From Candidatus Kaiserbacteria bacterium (lineage in GTDB: Bacteria > Patescibacteriota > Minisyncoccia > Phycocordibacterales > UBA2100), in NCBI GenBank assembly GCA_016186695.1, contig JACPLC010000006.1, positions 7,283 through 71,282 of the forward strand: 64,000 bases of DNA. Direction: 5' to 3'. The notes beneath the pieces were generated by a model, which worked only from the letters and a program-made list of their open reading frames with translations, ran no database searches and was not told where the DNA came from. Both the position numbers and the translations under genes were made by a program. Numbering within the stretch: position 1 is the stretch's first letter; each line of letters opens with the position of its first letter. Positions 608-56,172 of this stretch are shown piece after piece.

Positions 608-2707
608 TTAACTTTTAAGCAAAAATTCGATATCGCTCTTCAAAATCTGATATCCCTGTTCGTTGAGCAATTTGCCTCGATAACTATTCAACTGCTTAAG
701 CATAGCTTGGAGTATACGTTTAGCAATGAAGGGCGGTGTTTGTTTTGCCGCTTTCAGCTGCGCTTTTAGTGATTTATATATTCCGATACTCACCCATTTG
801 AGTTGGTAAATTCGTTCGAGATCTGCCAGCGTGCTTTGGTACGTAACAACAACATCTAATGCGTTCGGGGGCATCACACCGTTTTGAACCTCCAGATTCA
901 GCTCCGATGTAATGCCCAGCGCGGTATTCCCTGTAAACGACGCGCTCGTGGTTGTTGCCTCGCTAATTAAATTCGTTTCGACAGTGAAGGGTCCACTCCC
1001 CGTTCCTTGCGCGTAGATTTTATATTCGCCGTCGAGCGGATTGAGGATCGTGATGAATTCTGTATCCGTGCCAAATCCTGTATAGAATGCGTTCAAGATT
1101 TCGTTTACCTCCTGCCCATTGAAGTCCTTCCCGATTTTCTTGCCATCAGGACTGATAATAAGAAGATCCGCGGGAGATAGTATCTTCATCAAGAGTATTT
1201 TCGCATCCGGAAGATGGAAGTTTTTAACAATTACTGAAGGGTTCTGACCTCTTAGGGCGACGTACACTTCAGGCTGTGCCTCTATGGGCAAGTCATTGTG
1301 AGTAAATGAAACCAGCACCTTATTTTCATCAACAAAAGAAGCACTCGGAAGAGGCACGGTATTATCGCCGCTTCCTAATATTAATCCGTGATCACCAAAC
1401 AAATCGAAAAATCCTTCTGGATAGCCGTGTTCCCACATTGGAGGAGAGGGGCTATCCACTACGTTTATGCCAACAATTGTTTTTTGCTCTGTGACACTAC
1501 CGACGATGTTATGAATATCAATTCCAGCGTCTAATAAATTGTTGACATTATTATTTAGTGCCTCAAGAAATGTATTCGTAGGATAATTTTGGGGGTAGTC
1601 TCGTAAAAGGTTCTCATCAAAAATGTAATCATAAACGGGCAGCAACTCTCTGACTGCATCAATGGGTTCTGTTCGCAGATAAGCAAACAAGCTAGAATAA
1701 CCCTCTTCTGCCGCTTCGTGCCCTAGAATGAGTTCCAGTACCTCGTCAACAATGCTTTTAGTAGGAGCAAATATTTCCGTGGGCCCTAATTCGCCGCCTT
1801 CCCACATTAAATACGCTTTCGGGGCGCCGAGGTGGGGCGTGCCGAGGAAAATCAGTTGATCGACGTCGTTTTCGTAGGTGTCGGACTGCACATATTGCCG
1901 TGCGACGAGACCGCCCATTGAGTGCGCGACAAGATCGACTTTGTCGCAGTCGCAAATATCTTTCACTTGATTGATCTTCTCTTTCAGCAACACAGCCGTC
2001 TCGACATTCGACTTTCTCCAATCATACGGAAAAGTGAACAAATCTACTTCTCTGGTGTATCCATTTTCGTCGAGCGTTGCGATGAGATCGTCATACGTGT
2101 GAAGAATCGGGTCTATCACCCACTCGCCGTTGTGCTGTTCCGAGCCCAAGATCCCCGGAACGATAATGACAGGGTCGGGAGTCGCGTTTGCGTCGGTAAT
2201 CGTGAAGCGGAGCGTCGCAAGAACAGTCAGTGGGTCGGGTACGGGGAAGTCTTGCGCGTACGCAATGTCGGCGAACAACGCGCGTGCGAACCATATACGT
2301 AGTCGATCCTTGAAGATAAGTATCGGCGGTGGGATTTCGAGGATATCTATCTCATACACGCCGGCCTCGATCCATGCGAAGAGTTCGTCGCCGTCGTTCG
2401 GATCATCGGGATCGTCAAATGTCGGACCGCTGAAGAACGACTTGACGAATTGTCGCTCACCGGCGCCGTCGATCGTGTAGAGGCGTCCGACAATATCAAA
2501 GGCCGCCGGCCCAGTGACGTAGGTGAGCGCGGGAGCATTGAGAGACACGCTGTAGGTGCCTCCATCGAGCATGACAACGTCTCCCCATACAAGAGACGAT
2601 TCGTGCGGCGGTGGGACTGCTGTTGCATCTACCCGTTCAAGAAAGAAAACAAAAATTAATAACAAAAGTATAAGGACAGGAACCGTAACTCGCAGCGCGA
2701 CCCTCAT
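608..2707 (-). CDS. secreted alpha/beta-hydrolase (GXSXG lipase/esterase, PGAP1/LCAT-like) with large extra domains
   Basis: 699 aa. N-terminal signal/TM (VTVPVLILLLLIFVFFL). Nucleophile elbow VAHSMGGLVARQYV in the central region. Confidence 0.7.
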   Translation of the reverse strand: MRVALRVTVPVLILLLLIFVFFLERVDATAVPPPHESSLVWGDVVMLDGGTYSVSLNAPALTYVTGPAAFDIVGRLYTIDGAGERQFVKSFFSGPTFDDPDDPNDGDELFAWIEAGVYEIDILEIPPPILIFKDRLRIWFARALFADIAYAQDFPVPDPLTVLATLRFTITDANATPDPVIIVPGILGSEQHNGEWVIDPILHTYDDLIATLDENGYTREVDLFTFPYDWRKSNVETAVLLKEKINQVKDICDCDKVDLVAHSMGGLVARQYVQSDTYENDVDQLIFLGTPHLGAPKAYLMWEGGELGPTEIFAPTKSIVDEVLELILGHEAAEEGYSSLFAYLRTEPIDAVRELLPVYDYIFDENLLRDYPQNYPTNTFLEALNNNVNNLLDAGIDIHNIVGSVTEQKTIVGINVVDSPSPPMWEHGYPEGFFDLFGDHGLILGSGDNTVPLPSASFVDENKVLVSFTHNDLPIEAQPEVYVALRGQNPSVIVKNFHLPDAKILLMKILSPADLLIISPDGKKIGKDFNGQEVNEILNAFYTGFGTDTEFITILNPLDGEYKIYAQGTGSGPFTVETNLISEATTTSASFTGNTALGITSELNLEVQNGVMPPNALDVVVTYQSTLADLERIYQLKWVSIGIYKSLKAQLKAAKQTPPFIAKRILQAMLKQLNSYRGKLLNEQGYQILKSDIEFLLKS

Positions 2708-2930
2708 GAAATCGCATTGTAGCTAACTCATCTACAAACACAAAAGCCCCACCCGTGAAGCATGGCTTCACTTTGAGAACCCTCGGTTCTCAACGCTCGC
2801 GAAGCTCACTGCTCTCCGACACGGAGAACTCTCGTTCCCCGACCCCTTCCCTCAACACATCAGCCGCGATCACAGTCGCGGCTGATGGTTGAAAACTAGG
2901 GGCTTTTGTCGGTCGGAATCCGTCAGGGAT

Positions 2931-3879: not shown

Positions 3880-4605
3880 TTATGGGCAGGTCCCGAACGT
3901 CCAGACTGGGACGAAGTACAACCCGTTCGCTCCCGTCGTCGAAGCCGTGCCTAGATTTGAGACGAGCGTCAGCTTGCCCGGTGATGCGGTGCTTGTGGCG
4001 TTCATCTGAATACAACCGACGCTCAGCGTCGAGGTTGCGGTGTTACTTGTCGTCAGTGTAAGCGCACCTGAGCCTCCATCGAGTGTGACGTCTCCGTAAA
4101 TTCTTGTTGCGCCCGTCACTTGCAACGTGCTCGAAGCATTCACCGTGCTATCAAATTGATTCGCACCGTTCGTTGTAAATGCACCTGCAACAGTCGACGA
4201 CGCTTGCGAGACGAAGCCAGCAACGAGCGTCGAAAGGCCGGTAATGCTGAGCGTGCCCTGCGTCGCAAAGTTTCCATTAGAGGCCGTCGTTGTCGCGAAT
4301 CCATTGAACCAGACGTTGCCTGTCGCCGTTATCTGGGTTGTTGATGCCCGCTGGAGCGAGGTGTTGTCCGTCACCGTGAATGCGCCGCCCGTCACCGTCG
4401 AGGACGCCGCAGATACGTAGCCCGCCGTCAAAGTAGAGAGGCCGGTAACACCAAGTGTCCCGCCCGTCGAGATGTTCGTTGAGATAGTCGTTGCAGCCTG
4501 TACCGCTACGACGCCGAATAATAGAATGCTTGCAAATACGATGCCGAGCGTGAACCAACTTGCATTGTGCGCCCAGCTTGCAAAACCTTTCATATAAACT
4601 AACAA
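3880..4605 (-). CDS. membrane-anchored Thr/Ser/Gly-rich repeat protein (surface protein)
   Basis: N-terminal TM (WFTLGIVFASILLFGVVAV). Internal repeats GTLGVTGLSTLTAGYVSAASSTVTGGAFTV / GTLSITGLSTLVAGFVSQASSTVAGAFTT. Confidence 0.55.
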   Translation of the reverse strand: MLVYMKGFASWAHNASWFTLGIVFASILLFGVVAVQAATTISTNISTGGTLGVTGLSTLTAGYVSAASSTVTGGAFTVTDNTSLQRASTTQITATGNVWFNGFATTTASNGNFATQGTLSITGLSTLVAGFVSQASSTVAGAFTTNGANQFDSTVNASSTLQVTGATRIYGDVTLDGGSGALTLTTSNTATSTLSVGCIQMNATSTASPGKLTLVSNLGTASTTGANGLYFVPVWTFGTCP

Positions 4606-51135: not shown

Positions 51136-51181
51136 AAACTTGGGCGACTGTCGAAAATTGAACTTCAAACTTGGGTGACCG
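51136..51181. repeat. 15-nt direct repeat of tRNA-His 3' end/flank (aaacttgggCgacTg / aaacttgggTgacCg), 31 nt apart
   Basis: Read directly. The second copy overlaps the last 8 nt of the tRNA-His gene. Resembles an att-site-like partial tRNA duplication. Confidence 0.5.
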
Positions 51182-51246
51182 GCGGGACTTGCACCCGCAA
51201 CCGCCTGGACCACAACCAGGAACTCTACTGTTGAGCTACGGCCACC
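51174..51246 (-). tRNA. tRNA-His (anticodon GTG) with encoded G-1, no encoded CCA
   Basis: Reverse complement is G-GUGGCCG UA GCUC AACAGUA GAGU U CCUGG UUGUGGU CCAGG CGGUU GCGGG UGCAAGU CCCGC CGGUCAC C. Anticodon loop UUGUGGU. Extra 5' G pairs with C73. Confidence 0.85.
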
Positions 51247-51247
51247 A

Positions 51248-51751
51248 TTACGATCGGGGCTTTAGGAGACCGCGATCACGTCCCACATCATAATGGTGAA
51301 CGAGAAAATGGCAATTATGACAGAGCCACGCAAGGTTATCTCCGGAATTATTCAGTCGATTACGATCTTTGTGGTGGACAGCCAAAATTCGCGTGTCAGA
51401 AGTCTTGCATACCTCGCAAACTTTCTCCCGCTTTGTTCGATTGAGCGCTGTAACCGAAGCGGAGCTCGAATGCCCATCCTTCCAACTCTTGTTATTCGGT
51501 CCGAAGAAGACCTGATTTCTCCAAATCGTCTGGCATGATTTATTGCAAAAATATTTCTTGTGCTTCGCTAGCCGCAAGCGTTTAGGGGATCTATAAAGTT
51601 CTTTGCCGCATGTGCCACATGCGACGTATTTGCCGGAGCGAATCGCAGCGTAGTGACAAGCATTCGAACAATACTTGCCGCCCCCTCTTCTGACTAAGAA
51701 AGGCTTTCTTTTAAACTCCTGCCGGCAGACTGTACATATGTAAATAGCCAC
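51248..51751 (-). CDS. HNH endonuclease with N-terminal Cys-rich zinc-finger region
   Basis: C-terminal HNH motif ...VCEVCKTSDTRILAVHHKDRNRLNNSGDNLAWLCHNCHFLVHH. Several CxxC pairs N-terminally. GC is lower than the core. GTG start lies directly after GGAG. Confidence 0.8.
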   Translation of the reverse strand: MAIYICTVCRQEFKRKPFLVRRGGGKYCSNACHYAAIRSGKYVACGTCGKELYRSPKRLRLAKHKKYFCNKSCQTIWRNQVFFGPNNKSWKDGHSSSASVTALNRTKREKVCEVCKTSDTRILAVHHKDRNRLNNSGDNLAWLCHNCHFLVHHYDVGRDRGLLKPRS

Positions 51752-51763
51752 TCCTAGAGCATA

Positions 51764-51800
51764 TCACATGGTCTTCTGAATTTTTCAGAAGACCATGTGA
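51764..51800. promoter_or_regulatory. perfect 37-bp palindrome (17-bp arms, 3-nt spacer) immediately upstream of the HNH gene RBS
   Basis: tcacatggtcttctgaa-ttt-ttcagaagaccatgtga. It ends 9 nt before AGGAG/GTG of the HNH ORF. No U-tract follows on either strand. Confidence 0.55.
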
Positions 51801-51891
51801 ACATCTTGGCAGAAATTTCCGGAACACGCGACGCCGCCCCGTGAGAGAAGCGTACGCTTTCCGCACGGGGCGACGTCAAAAAGCACGAGGT

Positions 51892-52281
51892 CTACATTGT
51901 TGCCGGTTGCGCTCCGCTTGCCATACTGCTTCCTTCCTTCAAGCCGAAGCCGGCCCAAAGAGCCACGGCCGCGATCACAAGGTGCAGCACGTGGTCGGCC
52001 GTGTTGGTCGCGATAAGCCCCAAAACGGTGTCGCCTTGTAGAAAGCCCACCACCGCCACGACGGCGTATACAACGCCAAATACCTGAAAGTACAGGCGGG
52101 CGTAGTTCCCTGCAAGCACTGCACCGAGTGCAAGAATTCCCGAGAGAAGATGGATAATGTTGTGGAGCGGATCCACCTCAAATATCCCGAGGAGGCTGCC
52201 GCCCGGCGTGAGAGCCGGCACGAAACCTAAAGCGCCGACGACAACAAACACGATCCCGAAAACCCACGCGAGTTTCTGAAC
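51892..52281 (-). CDS. small 4-TM membrane protein
   Basis: MVQKLAWVFGIVFVVVGALGFVPA... Four hydrophobic segments. Confidence 0.5.
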   Translation of the reverse strand, partial: VQKLAWVFGIVFVVVGALGFVPALTPGGSLLGIFEVDPLHNIIHLLSGILALGAVLAGNYARLYFQVFGVVYAVVAVVGFLQGDTVLGLIATNTADHVLHLVIAAVALWAGFGLKEGSSMASGAQPATM

Positions 52282-52325
52282 CATACATGGTCTATCTAGT
52301 CTGCCGCTAAATCGACCTTTCACCC

Positions 52326-53435
52326 CTAGCGTACCACGAGCTCTATGGGCACCGGCTCAAGAACGTTGACAACTTCAAATGTAACCCTCCCGATAAGCTG
52401 TCCGAACTCTGTCACGACGTTTACCTGCCACTTTCCTTCGCTCGCCTGGAACTTGATTGAGTAGCCGCGGTAGCCGCCATCACGCCCTCCCACGATAAAG
52501 TAGGGAATTGTCTCCTCTGTTGCCCACTTCCCGGAGCGCCCATCGTAGTACTGCCACTCGTGGGAGATTGTCGTTGAAAGTCCGGTCGGTGCGAAAATTG
52601 CCGTATAGACGTACACGGGTTCGTCCGGTGACCGATGAAAGGTCGTGTTGTATCGGAGATACGCTTCGTACCAGGGTGTCGGCTCCGCGAGAAGCCGATA
52701 CTCGTCATCAATGCGCACCGCTCCGTGATACACGCCGGCGTCCTTGAGAGCAAGCGGGAGTGGCGGAATGGCACCGGTAAAGTAGAGCGCGTTGAAAATG
52801 AGAAAGATCACCGCTACGGAGCGCGCAACACGCGTTCGCTCGGACCTCGCACGCTCAGGTACAAGGCGCGAGAGACCATAGAAAAACGTCACGATGACGA
52901 GAAGGCTTACGAAACCGCTTGCGACAAACACGTATGGTCCTATCTTCCCAAAGACTACGGGCAGAAAGAAGATGAAAAACGAGAAGAGGACTACGAAAAA
53001 CATGCTGAACTGGAAGACAAAGCGCGTGTAGAGGCGTACGAACCGTTCGTTCCCGATGAGAAGCGCGGCGAGAATGAAAATGAAAATCCAGCTGATTTGC
53101 AGGGCAGCACTCCTCGAGTACAAAGAAAGGTAGGCTGTGAACAGCCCACCGAATGCAAATTGCGCAACGACGGGAATGAGCGGCAACACCTTGAGAATCC
53201 ACGGGCGCGAAAGACGCCCTGTTTCGATCAAGTTCATCGCGACGATCGAGGACGCGGCAACCGCCAGATAGAAAAAGAGGACGGCGTTCGTTGTCCAGAG
53301 ATCTACCCGCCGCAAAAGCACAAAATAATCGAAAACAAGAGCCGCGATCAGGGCAAGCGGCGAAATATTGCGCATGTACCAATGCGCCAGCTCTTCTACG
53401 TTTTTGGGGAGTTTCTGCAGGTACTTTCTGACCAT
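52326..53435 (-). CDS. polytopic membrane protein with C-terminal extracytoplasmic beta-domain, unknown function
   Basis: About 6 TM segments in the N-terminal 220 aa. The C-terminal 150 aa is soluble (…WQYYDGRSGKWATEETIPYFIVGG...). Confidence 0.5.
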   Translation of the reverse strand: MVRKYLQKLPKNVEELAHWYMRNISPLALIAALVFDYFVLLRRVDLWTTNAVLFFYLAVAASSIVAMNLIETGRLSRPWILKVLPLIPVVAQFAFGGLFTAYLSLYSRSAALQISWIFIFILAALLIGNERFVRLYTRFVFQFSMFFVVLFSFFIFFLPVVFGKIGPYVFVASGFVSLLVIVTFFYGLSRLVPERARSERTRVARSVAVIFLIFNALYFTGAIPPLPLALKDAGVYHGAVRIDDEYRLLAEPTPWYEAYLRYNTTFHRSPDEPVYVYTAIFAPTGLSTTISHEWQYYDGRSGKWATEETIPYFIVGGRDGGYRGYSIKFQASEGKWQVNVVTEFGQLIGRVTFEVVNVLEPVPIELVVR

Positions 53436-53438
53436 AGT

Positions 53439-54005
53439 CTACGCGACGTCGCGGTAGGCGGGCGGTTTTTCGACAATGCCGGCACGGTGATTTGCGAGCC
53501 GCGTAAGCGCGTAGAAAAGCGAGGAAAGCCGGTTGGCATACGCGCGGCTCGACTCCGAGATGGCACGTTCTCCCGATTCATGGAGCGTCACGAGTCGGCG
53601 CTCCGCGCGCCGCGAAATCGCCCGCGCGATATCGAGCCGCGCGGAAAATTCCGTCCCGCCAGGAACCAAAAAAGTTTTTATCTCCGGAAGTTCTTTTTCT
53701 ATCTCATTGATGAGCGCACTTAAGGTCTCGACGCTTGCTTGTGATACAGATTTCGGCGCACCAGCCGCTTCTGCTTGTATCGTAAACAAGTAATCCTGCA
53801 CTTCGTGCAGAAGCTCTCTGCCACTCCGACCAATAACTTCGAAATCTTGCGGGCACGCGACCTTGCACCATCCGACGACCGTATTCAGCTCATCAAGCTG
53901 TCCCAAGCATTCAAAAATAGAAGAAGATTTGGAAATTCGTTGCCCTTGCGGCGTATCAAAAAGTTTCGTTGTTCCTTTGTCTCCCTTTCCGGTAAAGAGC
54001 GCCAT
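53439..54005 (-). CDS. ATP:cob(I)alamin adenosyltransferase, PduO-type
   Basis: MALFTGKGDKGTTKLFDTP...SIFECLGQLDELN... canonical PduO/MMAB N-terminus and helical bundle. Confidence 0.75.
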   Translation of the reverse strand: MALFTGKGDKGTTKLFDTPQGQRISKSSSIFECLGQLDELNTVVGWCKVACPQDFEVIGRSGRELLHEVQDYLFTIQAEAAGAPKSVSQASVETLSALINEIEKELPEIKTFLVPGGTEFSARLDIARAISRRAERRLVTLHESGERAISESSRAYANRLSSLFYALTRLANHRAGIVEKPPAYRDVA

Positions 54006-54488
54006 GCCTGTCACACGAAACGGCATGGCTTCGCAGAAGTCTGCCCTTTCGAGATAAATCTAGTAAACAACGTAAAGATATAATGCCTTACTCGCGCTAC
54101 ACTTTTGTATGCTGTTTCGTGTGTCCAGGCCATGCGTGCATCATAACAAAAGAAGGCGGCCCTGCTTCTCACGCAGAGCCCCCTAATAAACTGCAACAAC
54201 TACGATCATCGCAGTCAGCAGAATCAAAAACGCTGTTCCCATGTGGCCGCGCCGCGCCATTTCGCCTCCGATGAGTGCGAGAATAACGAACGCAAGTGTC
54301 GCGAGCACCGGAACTGCCGGAGTGTACATGGCACACCTCACACAACTGTTACTGACTGCATTCCGTATACACGCGCCGTTGCGGCGCGTCAAGAAAATCC
54401 TTTGTGCGCGGGAGAGGATTTGCACCTCCACGCCCGTAAGGGCACTGGCCCCTCGAGCCAGCGTGTCTGCTGTTTCACCACCCGCGCA

Positions 54489-55151
54489 TTACAACTGCTC
54501 GCCGATTATACGCAGTGCTTTCTCTATCTTCAAGCGCTTCCTCCTAAGGCACAACACGTCCCCCTGATAATAGACTTTCTTGAGCAGTTTCAAAGAATCG
54601 GCCTTGGCATATTTGAGCTGGATCGTCGTACCCTTCGCATCCCGAGTTACGTGTCCTTCTACCCCTATCTTCCTCGAAATCAAAGAGCGCAACCAGGTGA
54701 TATGTTTCTCGCTTGCAGAAACAAAAGTTGTATAGAACATAAAACTTGATTTCCACCTAGGGTCCCAATATGAATAAAATGTTCCGTCTCCATCTAAGTG
54801 ACCCCGAAGAAAATCCCAGAAATATTTTGGGGGAATCTGCACTTCTCTAATAATCTTTGTCTTATTGGGCATGAGCCCTATGGACAAGAGAAAACTATAC
54901 AGAATAACATTCCCAAACTGAATACGCGGAGTTCTTGTGCCAGTGTAGCCCGAGGATGTCGCGCCGACTGAAACCTCAATATTCAAGGCGTGCATGATAT
55001 TTCTGAGCTGTTCAGCATCGCTAGACACAAAAATGATATGCCTGCCATCGTTGGACAAGCAGCCATCTGTCACGAGAAGTCCGATTGCGTACGCAAGATT
55101 AGGTGTCCACTCAATCCTTTTTCCTTTCGGCTTCCTTCCCCGTCTTGCCAT
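54489..55151 (-). CDS. free-standing double-motif LAGLIDADG homing endonuclease
   Basis: Motif 1 LAYAIGLLVTDGCL. Motif 2 FWDFLRGHLDGDGTF. Local GC is markedly lower than the neighbours. Intergenic, between rplS and a PduO-type gene. Confidence 0.8.
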   Translation of the reverse strand: MARRGRKPKGKRIEWTPNLAYAIGLLVTDGCLSNDGRHIIFVSSDAEQLRNIMHALNIEVSVGATSSGYTGTRTPRIQFGNVILYSFLLSIGLMPNKTKIIREVQIPPKYFWDFLRGHLDGDGTFYSYWDPRWKSSFMFYTTFVSASEKHITWLRSLISRKIGVEGHVTRDAKGTTIQLKYAKADSLKLLKKVYYQGDVLCLRRKRLKIEKALRIIGEQL

Positions 55152-55232
55152 CAGTGTAATTATATGGCAGCTCAAGTATATAGCGTCTACCAATTGTTGA
55201 TAAATAAAAAAACCTATACTCGAGAACTCTAC

Positions 55233-55700
55233 TCACTTTTTCTCGGGAGTACCAGTTTCTGCGGTAACGGGCTCAGCTTTTTTTGCCTCGGACTCTGCCT
55301 CTTCGGGACGTGCCGCCTCTACCTGCTCAGCCGAGAGAGAACTGCCTACAAGGCGCGTACGGCGAAGCTGTCGGCGCGCTTCGCGCGCAACTTTCTCGCG
55401 GATGTAGTAGAGCTTCGCGCGGCGCACGCGGCTGCGCTTCAGGGTTTCGATCTTTTCTATCATCGGAGAGTAGAGCGGGAAAATCTTTTCGACGCCGACA
55501 CCGGAGAGAACACGCCGCACTGTGAAGGTCGCGCCGGCCTCCACCCCATGCTTGCGCGCGAGTACGAGGCCCTCAAACGCCTGCAGGCGGTATTTTCCTT
55601 TTTCCTCCTCGATCTTCTGCCACACGCGCACCGTATCTCCCGGCCGGAGGTCGAGATTCTTGCGCGATTCCATATCAACGGGCGAAATTTTTACTGCCAT
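55233..55700 (-). CDS. rplS: 50S ribosomal protein L19 with C-terminal extension
   Basis: ...[47 protein letters not shown]...[15 protein letters not shown]. Confidence 0.9.
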
Positions 55701-55726
55701 GACGGGGCACTATACCATTCGCGTCC

Positions 55727-56005
55727 CTAGAAAACAACATCGAACGAAGAGAATTTCTGTGAGGGTGTTCGCCACTCGACGTCGATGTCCGAAACGCGGG
55801 CGAGAAAAGGGCCTTTGCGCGCATGCTCAAGAAATTTCTCGAGTTTGTCGTTATAGCCCTGCGCGACAATTTCCACCGTAAAGTTGGGCATGTTGCGCAC
55901 AAAGCCGGTGAGTGCAAGGTGCCGCGCGTGCTTTGCAACGAAGTCACGGTAGAAAACTCCCTGTACTTTTCCTTTCACGACACATCGCACTTCTTCGACT
56001 TCCAT
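55727..56005 (-). CDS. acyP: acylphosphatase
   Basis: VKGKVQGVFYRDFVAKHARHLALTGFVRNMPNFTVEIVAQG. Confidence 0.85.
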   Translation of the reverse strand: MEVEEVRCVVKGKVQGVFYRDFVAKHARHLALTGFVRNMPNFTVEIVAQGYNDKLEKFLEHARKGPFLARVSDIDVEWRTPSQKFSSFDVVF

Positions 56006-56006
56006 G

Positions 56007-56078
56007 TGCGCGGTGAGGGATTTGAACCCCCGGCCTTCGCTGTGTAAAAGCGCCGCTCTACCGCTGAGCTAACCACGC
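56007..56078 (-). tRNA. tRNA-Val (anticodon TAC), no encoded CCA
   Basis: Reverse complement is GCGUGGU UA GCUC AGCGGUA GAGC .. CGCU UUUACAC AGCG .. GGGGG UUCAAAU CCCUC ACCGCGC A. Confidence 0.75.
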
Positions 56079-56100
56079 GCGTGCGTCTTGAAACGCCGTG

Positions 56101-56172
56101 CGCCCCCACCAGGAGTCGAACCCAGATCAACGCCTTAGAAGAGCGCTGCTCTATCCATTGAGCTATGGGGGC
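56101..56172 (-). tRNA. tRNA-Arg (anticodon TCT), no encoded CCA
   Basis: Reverse complement is GCCCCCA UA GCUC AAUGGAU AGAGC A GCGCU CUUCUAA GGCGU UGAUC UGGGU UCGACUC CUGGU GGGGGC G. Confidence 0.8.

Follow-up and report, generated by a model that had tools for sequence, protein, structure and literature searches.

How a LAGLIDADG homing endonuclease gene comes to be carried in a bacterial genome outside any intron or intein is the question raised by a 64,000 nt stretch of contig JACPLC010000006.1 from Candidatus Kaiserbacteria bacterium (assembly GCA_016186695.1). This whole stretch is referred to below as the window. We consider it probable that the gene, which lies downstream of rplS (coding for ribosomal protein L19), is the core of a mobile, intron-less cassette which has the tRNA-Leu(GAG) gene of Paceibacteria-type Patescibacteria as its homing site. 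There is good support for the gene being a selfish element and for its linkage to tRNA-Leu; where the enzyme cleaves, that the linked tRNA resists it, and which sequences serve as promoters are points which we infer. A first-pass annotation, made from the window alone, had read the gene as a free-standing mobile endonuclease, which was right in kind, and the context given there was incomplete. Coordinates of the features are listed in Table 1, and individual loci from other genomes are given as L numbers.

Linkage of the endonuclease family to tRNA-Leu

For the analysis of gene neighborhood, loci were selected by the endonuclease, as the best 80 among relatives confirmed in at least 558 species genomes (in a scan of one genome per GTDB species). 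In 75 of these 80 loci the endonuclease gene is followed on the same strand by tRNA-Leu(GAG) (once AAG); in the remaining five the contig ends at most 90 nt past the gene and the tRNA is not testable. When all loci are counted, each of the 90 testable copies abuts a tRNA-Leu gene (87 GAG, 1 AAG, 2 CAG). The gap between stop codon and tRNA is 0-46 nt (median ~4) and amounts to 0-10 nt in most loci. Upstream, rplS is present in 77 of 83 loci, usually at a distance of 60-130 nt. Other genes are found upstream in L009, L066, L078, and L083. Three of these four show tRNA-Leu directly after the endonuclease gene, and in L066 the contig ends 82 nt past the gene, ahead of any detectable tRNA, with the upstream tRNA fragment described below being present. 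Because copies without rplS still adjoin tRNA-Leu, the constant partner is the tRNA, and rplS is not required. The first-pass annotation had tied the insertion to the slot downstream of rplS, which does not agree with these loci. It had correctly named rplS and a PduO-type gene (an adenosyltransferase gene located further downstream) as the two neighbors, but had overlooked the tRNA-Leu(GAG) gene that begins 1 nt past the stop codon. The region 54432-54488, taken for a flank, is not spacer but the 5' two-thirds of this tRNA gene.

The tRNA-Leu(GAG) of the window is a complete and functional copy. We had suspected a pseudo-tRNA since the Rfam tRNA model is silent on it, but the suspicion was dropped because ARAGORN reports a full cloverleaf and the sequence folds better than 200 of 200 shuffled versions (z = -3.1). 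The same Rfam model misses the canonical tRNA-Leu(GAG) genes of L008 (5681-5765) and L084 (3630-3714), while finding those of L052 and L086. Its silence on the window tRNA is thus not diagnostic, and tRNA counts in these genomes that rely on Rfam alone would miss some tRNA-Leu(GAG) genes. The 3' end of the window tRNA is overlapped by an 82-aa open reading frame (ORF; 54183-54431, minus strand), for which a search for related families gave no match. On the sister contigs L001 and L002 the called gene covers just the last 48 codons; it begins at an internal ATG and codes for a small peptide of hydrophobic character.

The family comprises more than 3,155 protein clusters at 90% identity, nearly all of 216-230 aa. 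Relatives were found in Kaiser-, Jorgensen-, Nomura-, Adler-, Lipton-, Azam-, Yonath-, Wolfe-, Moran-, Harrison-, Portnoy-, and Taylorbacteria, among others. Genes of this type had been described as uncommon; with more than 3,000 protein clusters in Patescibacteria, this one is not. The IMG/VR viral contigs contain no relatives of the family, and a phage vector was therefore dropped from consideration. Several observations concern the databases. Contigs L004, L005, L006, L051, L066, and many others end within ~100-400 nt of the endonuclease gene on its downstream side, within or just beyond tRNA-Leu; the conserved tRNA together with the filled/empty polymorphism described below probably breaks assemblies at this locus. 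Several loci whose content is typical of Paceibacteria (e.g., L004, L009, and L083) carry the labels 'Saccharibacteria', 'Omnitrophica', or 'Gammaproteobacteria' in the records of metagenome-assembled genomes, which are likely automatic mislabels or mis-binned contigs. Some homologs are named 'Intein-containing protein' although they are intein-free, which is a mis-annotation.

The minus-strand ORF at 54489..55193 codes for 234 aa when read from TTG. We assigned the start to the ATG at 55151 (220 aa) on the basis of the conserved N-terminus of the family (MGKRGxKPKGK...) and of a 100% identical NCBI protein, which is named 'hypothetical protein HYW59_04025 [Candidatus Kaiserbacteria bacterium]'. 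It had been stated that both LAGLIDADG motifs are intact in a single chain. Both could be located (Table 1), and the residues D29 G30 and D120 G121 D122 G123, which include the catalytic aspartates, are invariant in a family alignment of 24 sequences (A1; mean column identity 69%). The match to Pfam LAGLIDADG_3 (PF14528) is marginal (23.5 bits, with a cutoff of 22.5), and no NCBIfam model matches the window protein. An AlphaFold2 model based on 24 homologs is confident (predicted local distance difference test score 88.7, predicted template modeling score 0.87). It shows the expected order of secondary structure elements for the tandem alpha-beta-beta-alpha-beta-beta-alpha fold, with no additional domain and no helix-turn-helix. 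When the model was compared to PDB by Foldseek, the top 50 matches were LAGLIDADG proteins without exception. I-Tsp061I, an archaeal intron enzyme (2dch; E 7e-11, TM-score 0.65/0.70), ranks first, ahead of intein endonucleases, E-DreI, WhiA (3hyi), and I-AniI.

The gene is indeed free-standing, as had been claimed. The ORF has its own start and stop codon and codes for the LAGLIDADG core alone, without the flanking Hint domains of an intein, and neither a group I intron nor any other RNA family of relevance scored in an Rfam scan of 54000-55800 at E<=10, so that a search for intron structure around the gene, which had been proposed as a check, came out negative. Between the window gene and its closest homolog (L170; 86% aa identity, same architecture), the ratio of nonsynonymous to synonymous substitution rates (dN/dS) is 0.10 at dS 0.80, which indicates that intact copies are under strong purifying selection. 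The protein would be expected to perform site-specific double-strand cleavage, and the only predicted site on offer is the anticodon arm of tRNA-Leu.

The gene had been described as markedly AT-richer than its neighbors, which is only partly right. At 45.4%, its total GC content is the second lowest when set against 56 long ORFs from the window (53.4 +/- 3.6%; z = -2.2), but the GC content at third codon positions (51.6% vs. 59.5 +/- 7.3%; z = -1.1, rank 11 of 56) is no outlier. In 80 of 81 homologous loci, the endonuclease gene exceeds its surroundings in AT content, by a mean of 8.9 points, and its GC content follows that of the host (r = 0.82). The GC deficit is thus a family trait and not a mark of recent arrival.

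The duplicated tRNA segment and the predicted homing site

A motif, AATTGGTA(G/T)ACGCTAYYACCTTGAG, is conserved upstream of the ATG in nearly every filled locus, i.e., in nearly every locus that carries the endonuclease gene. When up to 5 mismatches in 23 nt are allowed, it occurs 71 times on both strands of the ~1 Mb of fetched loci, and all 71 occurrences are directly upstream of an endonuclease gene or a relic of one, most often at a distance of 18 nt from the ATG. The matching stretch of the tRNA-Leu(GAG) consensus is GAAATTGGTAGACGCnCTACCTTGAGGTGGTAG. In local alignments the motif corresponds to tRNA nt ~14 to ~37-39, with a mean score of 14.3 compared to 7.9 for shuffled sequences (shuffle maximum 11). 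In the window, this orphan fragment consists of 25 nt (Table 1), and its homology to the tRNA stops exactly after the third anticodon base (GAG), at position 36/37. A target-site duplication had been suggested as something to look for in the flank 55152-55232; the tRNA-Leu copy located there is in effect such a duplication. Locus L020 keeps the entire 5' half of the tRNA upstream of the gene (GCGCGGGTGGCGAAATTGGTAGACGCTACTACCTTGAG).

Copies of the target gene are thus found on both sides of the endonuclease gene: the orphan upstream and the complete tRNA downstream. Because a duplicated tRNA fragment flanks the gene, the insertion is into a tRNA gene and not into anonymous spacer. From the sequences compared, the filled allele is best described as rplS, orphan (nt 14-36), -10 box, ORF, and complete tRNA (nt 1-36 plus 37-85). 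Equivalently, the ORF and a second tRNA 5' half are inserted at position 36/37 of the tRNA gene. We also considered an element that carries a whole tRNA. This predicts a 3'-half remnant downstream of the complete tRNA; such remnants were looked for in the loci and none was found, so that this option was rejected.

A sister lineage confirms that the fragment is derived from the target. Its LAGLIDADG proteins are 46-47% identical to that of the window, it has hundreds of members, and it is attached to tRNA-Leu(CAG). In 6 of 8 sister-lineage copies, tRNA-Leu(CAG) is found directly after the gene on the same strand. In L166 it adjoins the gene but is encoded on the other strand, suggesting that a rearrangement has occurred, and in L169 the called ORF runs into tRNA-Leu(CAG). 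At least 7 of the 8 upstream fragments read ...CTTCAG, CCTCAG, TCTCAG, or ATTCAG and then diverge. The anticodon of the fragment thus switches with that of the linked tRNA (GAG or CAG), which is expected if the fragment originates from the target tRNA. Copies of the sister lineage are found in L138 (138-782, minus strand), L081 (~2107-2754, minus strand), and L164-L169; L081 holds both elements, the GAG-linked and the CAG-linked one. In a further locus, L131 (~4150-4200), the endonuclease ORF ends with ...GCGCGGGTGGTGA and is followed at once by the tRNA start GCGCGGGTGG. At this junction, 13 nt from the tRNA 5' end are thus duplicated in tandem.

Candidate expression signals of the endonuclease gene are located near the orphan. 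A -10 hexamer resembling TATAAT is positioned 6-7 nt ahead of the ATG in 26 of the 49 loci which have such a hexamer, the window included, and this position suggests that the endonuclease mRNA may be leaderless. The sequence TTGGTA, which is derived from the D-loop, is located 18 nt upstream of the -10 box in 17 loci and is a possible -35 element. As a general -35 element it was rejected because it fits only the 17 loci with 18-nt spacing, which do not include the window.

These signals are relevant to a different geometry, in which the tRNA gene is recognized by the enzyme at its 5' boundary or upstream edge, the element inserts ahead of the tRNA, and the fragment is a promoter or an operator for auto-repression. 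Phage I-TevI, for example, binds an operator which resembles its own homing site. Such a geometry would account for the position of the fragment exactly between the possible -35 (TTGGTA) and the -10 box, for its conservation with the element across hosts while the full tRNA sequence varies by host, and for the stop codon being only 0-10 nt from tRNA +1 in most loci. It does not account for the fragment ending exactly past the anticodon in both the GAG and the CAG lineage, with the anticodon switching along with the target, nor for the whole tRNA 5' half in L020. Moreover, clean empty sites are too poorly conserved upstream of tRNA +1 to provide half of a target site. We thus consider this geometry unlikely.

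The breakpoint at 36/37 also brings to mind a degraded group I intron, i.e., the remnant of an endonuclease that was encoded in an intron at position 36/37 of tRNA-Leu and that outlived its ribozyme. The anticodon loop, which includes this breakpoint, is where group I introns of bacterial tRNAs insert, and such introns are plentiful in Patescibacteria. However, the negative Rfam scan at E<=10 applies here as well, and there is no room for a ribozyme in the 7-30 nt ahead of the ORF or the 0-10 nt after it. The downstream tRNA is complete and is not a 3' exon. The orphan lacks nt 1-13 in most loci and is therefore unfit as a 5' exon. As an account of the present state, a degraded intron is already refuted, and we give it very little credence overall.

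For insertion into the anticodon arm, the target sequence itself is suggestive. Single-chain LAGLIDADG enzymes cut pseudo-symmetric sites of ~22 bp at their center, leaving 4-nt overhangs. The consensus of endonuclease-free tRNA-Leu(GAG) genes (with alleles, e.g., from L086, L094, and L091) contains ...TTGGTAGACGCACTACCTTGAGGTGGTAGCGCC..., and its anticodon arm is a natural DNA palindrome (CTACC TTGAGGT GGTAG) whose center is 1-2 nt from the breakpoint. This palindrome would suit a pseudo-dimeric LAGLIDADG enzyme. The corresponding arm of the window tRNA is strongly diverged (CTGGC TCGAGGG GCCAG). A target-like tRNA sequence (TTGGTAGACGCnCTACCTTGAGG, up to 2 mismatches) was encountered at 22 of 48 unfilled sites but at only 5 of 81 filled ones (Fisher p = 1.6e-7), and at 22 of 48 vs. 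0 of 11 within the set selected by rplS (p = 0.004), both comparisons being made irrespective of phylogeny. The anticodon loop of the window tRNA (UCGAGGG) has C33 in place of the near-universal U33, which is rare: beyond the window, only L009 and L014 share it in the alignments viewed. The window tRNA also has A18/G55 in place of G18/U55, which concerns a tertiary pair. This was rejected as a change driven by the endonuclease because it occurs in relatives with an empty site (e.g., L086) and is thus a clade trait.

Table 1. Features of the endonuclease locus and its surroundings in the window (all on the minus strand).
Feature	Position	Strand	Remarks
LAGLIDADG homing endonuclease gene, single-chain	54489..55151	-	220 aa, stop codon included
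LAGLIDADG motif 1 (LAYAIGLLVTDGCL)	55056..55097	-	residues 19-32; catalytic Asp29
LAGLIDADG motif 2 (LRGHLDGDGTF)	54777..54809	-	residues 115-125; catalytic Asp122
Orphan tRNA-Leu fragment (AATTGGTAGACGCTATATACTTGAG)	55171..55195	-	25 nt; tRNA-Leu(GAG) D-loop to anticodon, nt ~14-36
TATAAT box, candidate promoter for a leaderless endonuclease mRNA	55159..55164	-	7 nt upstream of ATG; putative
TTGAAG-N17-TATAAT, candidate tRNA promoter carried by the element	54505..54533	-	within the last 15 ORF codons; putative
tRNA-Leu(GAG), complete, functional copy of the target gene	54404..54487	-	ARAGORN; begins 1 nt past the endonuclease stop codon
rplS (ribosomal protein L19), usual upstream neighbor, context only	55233..55700	-	Pfam Ribosomal_L19, E 5e-33
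tRNA-His(GTG)	51173-51245	-

Occupancy, decay, and transmission of the element

Loci that are chosen by the endonuclease show a rigid synteny, and a vertically inherited host gene was our provisional interpretation of them. This was overturned by an independent sample of 80 metagenome loci chosen by rplS alone (67-94% identity to the window rplS over a 117-aa core). A site was scored only if the contig holds the rplS stop codon and the tRNA, which applies to 59 sites. Just 11 of the 59 are filled, and 48 lack the endonuclease gene. At these 48 sites, the gap between rplS and the tRNA is 1-554 nt (median ~50), and 13 of them are clean empty sites with a gap of at most 20 nt. It had been proposed to look for empty sites in related genomes, and in most close relatives tRNA-Leu(GAG) does come right after rplS, the endonuclease gene being absent.

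At least 10 loci (L084, L085, L088, L089, L093, L095, L096, L097, L098, and L135) are deletion relics. They retain the last ~10-35 codons of the gene (e.g., ...ATGTTAGCTATAGTAGGCGAGCAGTTGTAG, coding for MLAIVGEQL*), and some also the upstream leader; in L098 both ends of the gene are present and the middle is deleted. The closest relative of the window by rplS core (L084, 94%) is itself a relic, and its C-terminal remnant belongs to a subtype different from the window gene, which indicates that occupation of the site is old and recurrent in this clade. Two otherwise full-length copies (L055 and L113) have in-frame stop codons. Close relatives thus cover the filled site, the deletion relic, and the clean empty site. 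Intact copies under selection together with relics and clean sites are the expected picture for the cycle of gain, decay, and loss of homing endonucleases, and its documentation at one chromosomal site provides a case study for the life cycle of such an element.

Inheritance was assessed by comparing pairwise identities of the endonuclease with those of the rplS core. Across 78 loci these are uncorrelated (Spearman -0.02, Mantel p = 0.59), in a comparison which is limited by saturation (a protein with ~50% invariant positions) and by short markers. The nearest filled relatives of the window by rplS (84-86%) have endonucleases that are just 49-56% identical to that of the window, and the best endonuclease matches among these 78 loci (62-67%) go along with an rplS identity of 41-65%. 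The similarity of tRNA-Leu tracks weakly with that of the endonuclease (rho 0.12, p = 0.037) and shows no such relation to rplS (rho -0.13). A weak tracking of this kind is a prediction of co-conversion of the flanking tRNA. It is found beside an orphan which is element-like and not host-like, and this is probably owed to co-conversion or selection. We read the data as pointing to a vertical persistence which may be punctuated by transfer between lineages.

Occupancy and inheritance also bear on domestication, i.e., on a host protein such as a WhiA-like regulator or a factor that acts on the rplS operon or on the expression or maturation of tRNA-Leu, which would be vertically inherited in a conserved block. 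Synteny is very conserved and the protein length uniform (216-230 aa) across many orders of Paceibacteria, purifying selection is strong (dN/dS 0.10), the GC content of the gene tracks that of the host, there is short-range co-inheritance with rplS, and WhiA is among the structural matches. All of this would fit a host protein. However, ~80% of the relatives sampled by rplS have no such gene, the closest relative included, and deletion relics are found in many of them; congruence with rplS is lacking at the global scale; the catalytic aspartates are invariant in the family of the window; and an extra helix-turn-helix domain is absent. We consider domestication to be highly improbable.

The relics draw attention to the 3' end of the ORF. 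The candidate tRNA promoter located there (Table 1) matches 10 of 12 consensus positions and is 17 nt upstream of tRNA +1. The pattern TTGAA(A/G)-N17-TATA(A/G)T, which falls within the codons for the conserved peptide ...L-K-I-E-K-x-L-x-I-(I/V)-G, is present in ~26 of 81 filled loci, and this stretch is retained in the relics L084, L085, L088, L093, and L098. As a universal feature, an embedded tRNA promoter was rejected because it is found in just these ~26 of 81 loci, but in the subfamily of the window the element seems to supply a promoter for the tRNA. A tRNA promoter within the 3' end of the ORF would explain why decay halts there.

The same overlap could be invoked for a gene that is an inactive, decaying leftover and that is intact by chance or through the overlap of its 3' end with a tRNA promoter. 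Relics and stop-containing copies do exist in relatives, and the tRNA may rely on a promoter in the ORF. Yet the overlap would constrain just the last ~45 nt, while the dN/dS of 0.10 at dS 0.80 applies to the whole ORF and the catalytic residues are invariant in the 24-member alignment. An inactive leftover can thus hardly be credited.

For the mobile cassette that we favor, the following course of events is proposed. The enzyme would cut endonuclease-free tRNA-Leu(GAG) genes in the anticodon arm near 36/37. Repair from a filled allele would use homology to the tRNA 3' half on one side and, on the other, to the orphan and in close relatives also to rplS. The ORF would be copied in together with a new 5' half of the tRNA, so that the essential tRNA is restored without splicing or an intron. 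The old 5' half would stay upstream as a truncated orphan, and the orphan and the 3' end of the ORF would have been recruited as promoters, the former of the endonuclease gene and the latter of the tRNA. The tRNA linked to the endonuclease would have diverged from the target-like sequence and is probably resistant to cutting. The element would spread between lineages, persist vertically for a while, and decay by internal deletion.

Several observations weigh against parts of this scheme. The position of the cut and the ability of the linked tRNA to resist it are deduced from sequence breakpoints and frequencies, the tRNA comparisons between filled and empty sites ignore phylogeny, and five filled loci still have a target-like tRNA. 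A left-arm homology of 24 nt is short for recombination. The orphan hardly varies between hosts and differs by 1 nt in length from real tRNAs, which argues that it evolves with the element and is not re-derived in each homing event; its conservation could be owed to a promoter or operator function alone. The window spacing of 23 nt between TTGGTA and TATAAT is too far for a -35/-10 pair, and the embedded tRNA promoter occurs in just about one third of the filled loci. With respect to transfer, the plateau at ~58% endonuclease identity could partly reflect saturation, and vertical inheritance is evident at short range: for 30 of 78 loci, the endonuclease neighbor that is nearest also ranks among the top five by rplS, where 5.1 would be expected.

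Relation to known systems and significance

The closest parallel that we encountered is found in fungal mitochondria, where mobile ORFs (LAGLIDADG or GIY-YIG) insert into atp6, atp9, cox2, and nad3. They bring along a replacement for the C-terminal gene segment, and the native segment is left as a downstream duplicate. The first such case was Allomyces macrogynus atp6, and others are known from Glomus spp. (PMC3630166). As in these systems, the tRNA-Leu element is a free-standing endonuclease gene in an essential gene, with no intron or intein; a substitute for part of the target keeps the function while the displaced native part stays nearby as a dead duplicate; and the distribution among close relatives is patchy. 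The arrangement is, however, a mirror image, with the 5' part being replaced and the orphan located upstream. The target is a tRNA gene and the host a bacterium, the orphan is conserved and may serve as promoter or operator, and the family has thousands of copies at a single site.

Enzymes from rRNA introns (of the I-Tsp061I and I-DmoI type), among which the archaeal ones are the closest structural relatives, share the fold, the single chain of ~200-220 aa with two motifs, and a highly conserved structural RNA gene as target, and rRNA insertions with LAGLIDADG genes are known from the same host phylum, which belongs to the candidate phyla radiation (CPR; PMC11270868). In contrast to these enzymes, to which sequence identity is ~16%, the tRNA-Leu element has no surrounding intron, targets a tRNA gene, and keeps gene function by duplication instead of splicing. 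Group I introns within genes for tRNAs have been reported at position 35/36 of tRNA-Asn/Asp from Patescibacteria, with HNH genes, and at 36/37 of cyanobacterial tRNA-Arg(CCU), with LAGLIDADG genes (PMC13011429). The insertion in the anticodon loop beside the anticodon and a host phylum rich in such introns are common to both, but the tRNA-Leu element lacks a ribozyme and the tRNA is uninterrupted. Neither of these two surveys, on CPR rRNA insertions (PMC11270868) and on tRNA group I introns (PMC13011429), mentions the family or tRNA-Leu(GAG). A description of the endonuclease/tRNA-Leu arrangement was not found in the literature covered by our search, which was incomplete, so that an earlier description is possible.

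Two further systems share single traits. Free-standing phage endonucleases perform 'intronless homing', and SegB of phage T4 is a GIY-YIG enzyme encoded in the phage genome. SegB-type endonucleases are also free-standing genes beside tRNA genes, which favor their own inheritance by cutting the endonuclease-free allele while the resident allele is protected by divergence. A duplicated target fragment, as found for the tRNA-Leu element, is not known from SegB, and in contrast to the phage-borne SegB the tRNA-Leu family has no relatives in IMG/VR. WhiA is encoded by a core gene, is not known to have the catalytic acidic residues, and has a C-terminal helix-turn-helix. Both WhiA (Foldseek match 3hyi) and the window protein are bacterial, chromosomally encoded, and free-standing with a double-LAGLIDADG fold, but the tRNA-Leu family keeps the catalytic aspartates, has no helix-turn-helix, and is patchy, being absent from ~80% of close relatives.

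The window carries another endonuclease-like gene next to a tRNA. A tRNA-rich block is common to distant Paceibacteria (window 51173-56172, L008, and L015), in which tRNA-Arg(TCT), tRNA-Val(TAC), rplS, tRNA-Leu(GAG), and tRNA-His(GTG) recur. In the window, an HNH/zinc-finger endonuclease-like gene (51248-51751, minus strand, 167 aa) ends 2 nt before tRNA-His(GTG). Homologs adjoin tRNA-His in seven loci, and L080 has a 24-aa relic of the HNH gene at tRNA-His (loci listed beside the window: L068, L132, L026, L076, L155, L156, and L080). L076 and L156 have HNH gene copies in tandem. L110 and L144 have one copy each near a contig end, with no tRNA-His detected nearby. With homologs in ~10 fetched loci compared to 49 tRNA-His genes, the distribution looks patchy. 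A tRNA-His fragment upstream of the HNH gene, as a parallel to the tRNA-Leu orphan, was not seen in these loci, and this parallel was dropped.

The HNH family appears to be a second, unrelated endonuclease family parked on a tRNA gene. A tentative extension, which we hold to be possible though somewhat short of probable, is that Patescibacteria harbor a guild of intron-less homing endonucleases on essential tRNA genes (LAGLIDADG on tRNA-Leu(GAG) and tRNA-Leu(CAG), HNH on tRNA-His). Each would bring a replacement half and its own promoters, transcription of the tRNA would depend on the parasite, removal would be possible only by large internal deletions, and the tRNA would be driven off target even where it is near-universally conserved (e.g., at U33 in the window). 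If this is true, the family would also provide natural meganuclease variants by the thousands, with a predicted target for each. For enzyme engineering, the family is a resource, being an extensive natural series of compact (~220 aa) meganucleases with a target that should be readable from the adjacent DNA.

CPR bacteria are known for introns in their rRNA and tRNA genes. The family described here is among the most widespread endonucleases in CPR and yet seems unannotated, given the label 'hypothetical' and the lack of an NCBIfam model. We thus report what is apparently an undescribed and very large family of selfish elements in Patescibacteria, which would account for unusual tRNA-Leu sequences and for contig breaks at this locus. 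Homing endonucleases normally escape selection inside self-splicing introns or inteins. The tRNA-Leu element may represent a third route, in which an abundant bacterial family invades an essential tRNA gene and brings a spare gene half as repair. To our knowledge, this spare-part route was previously known only from a few protein genes of fungal mitochondria.

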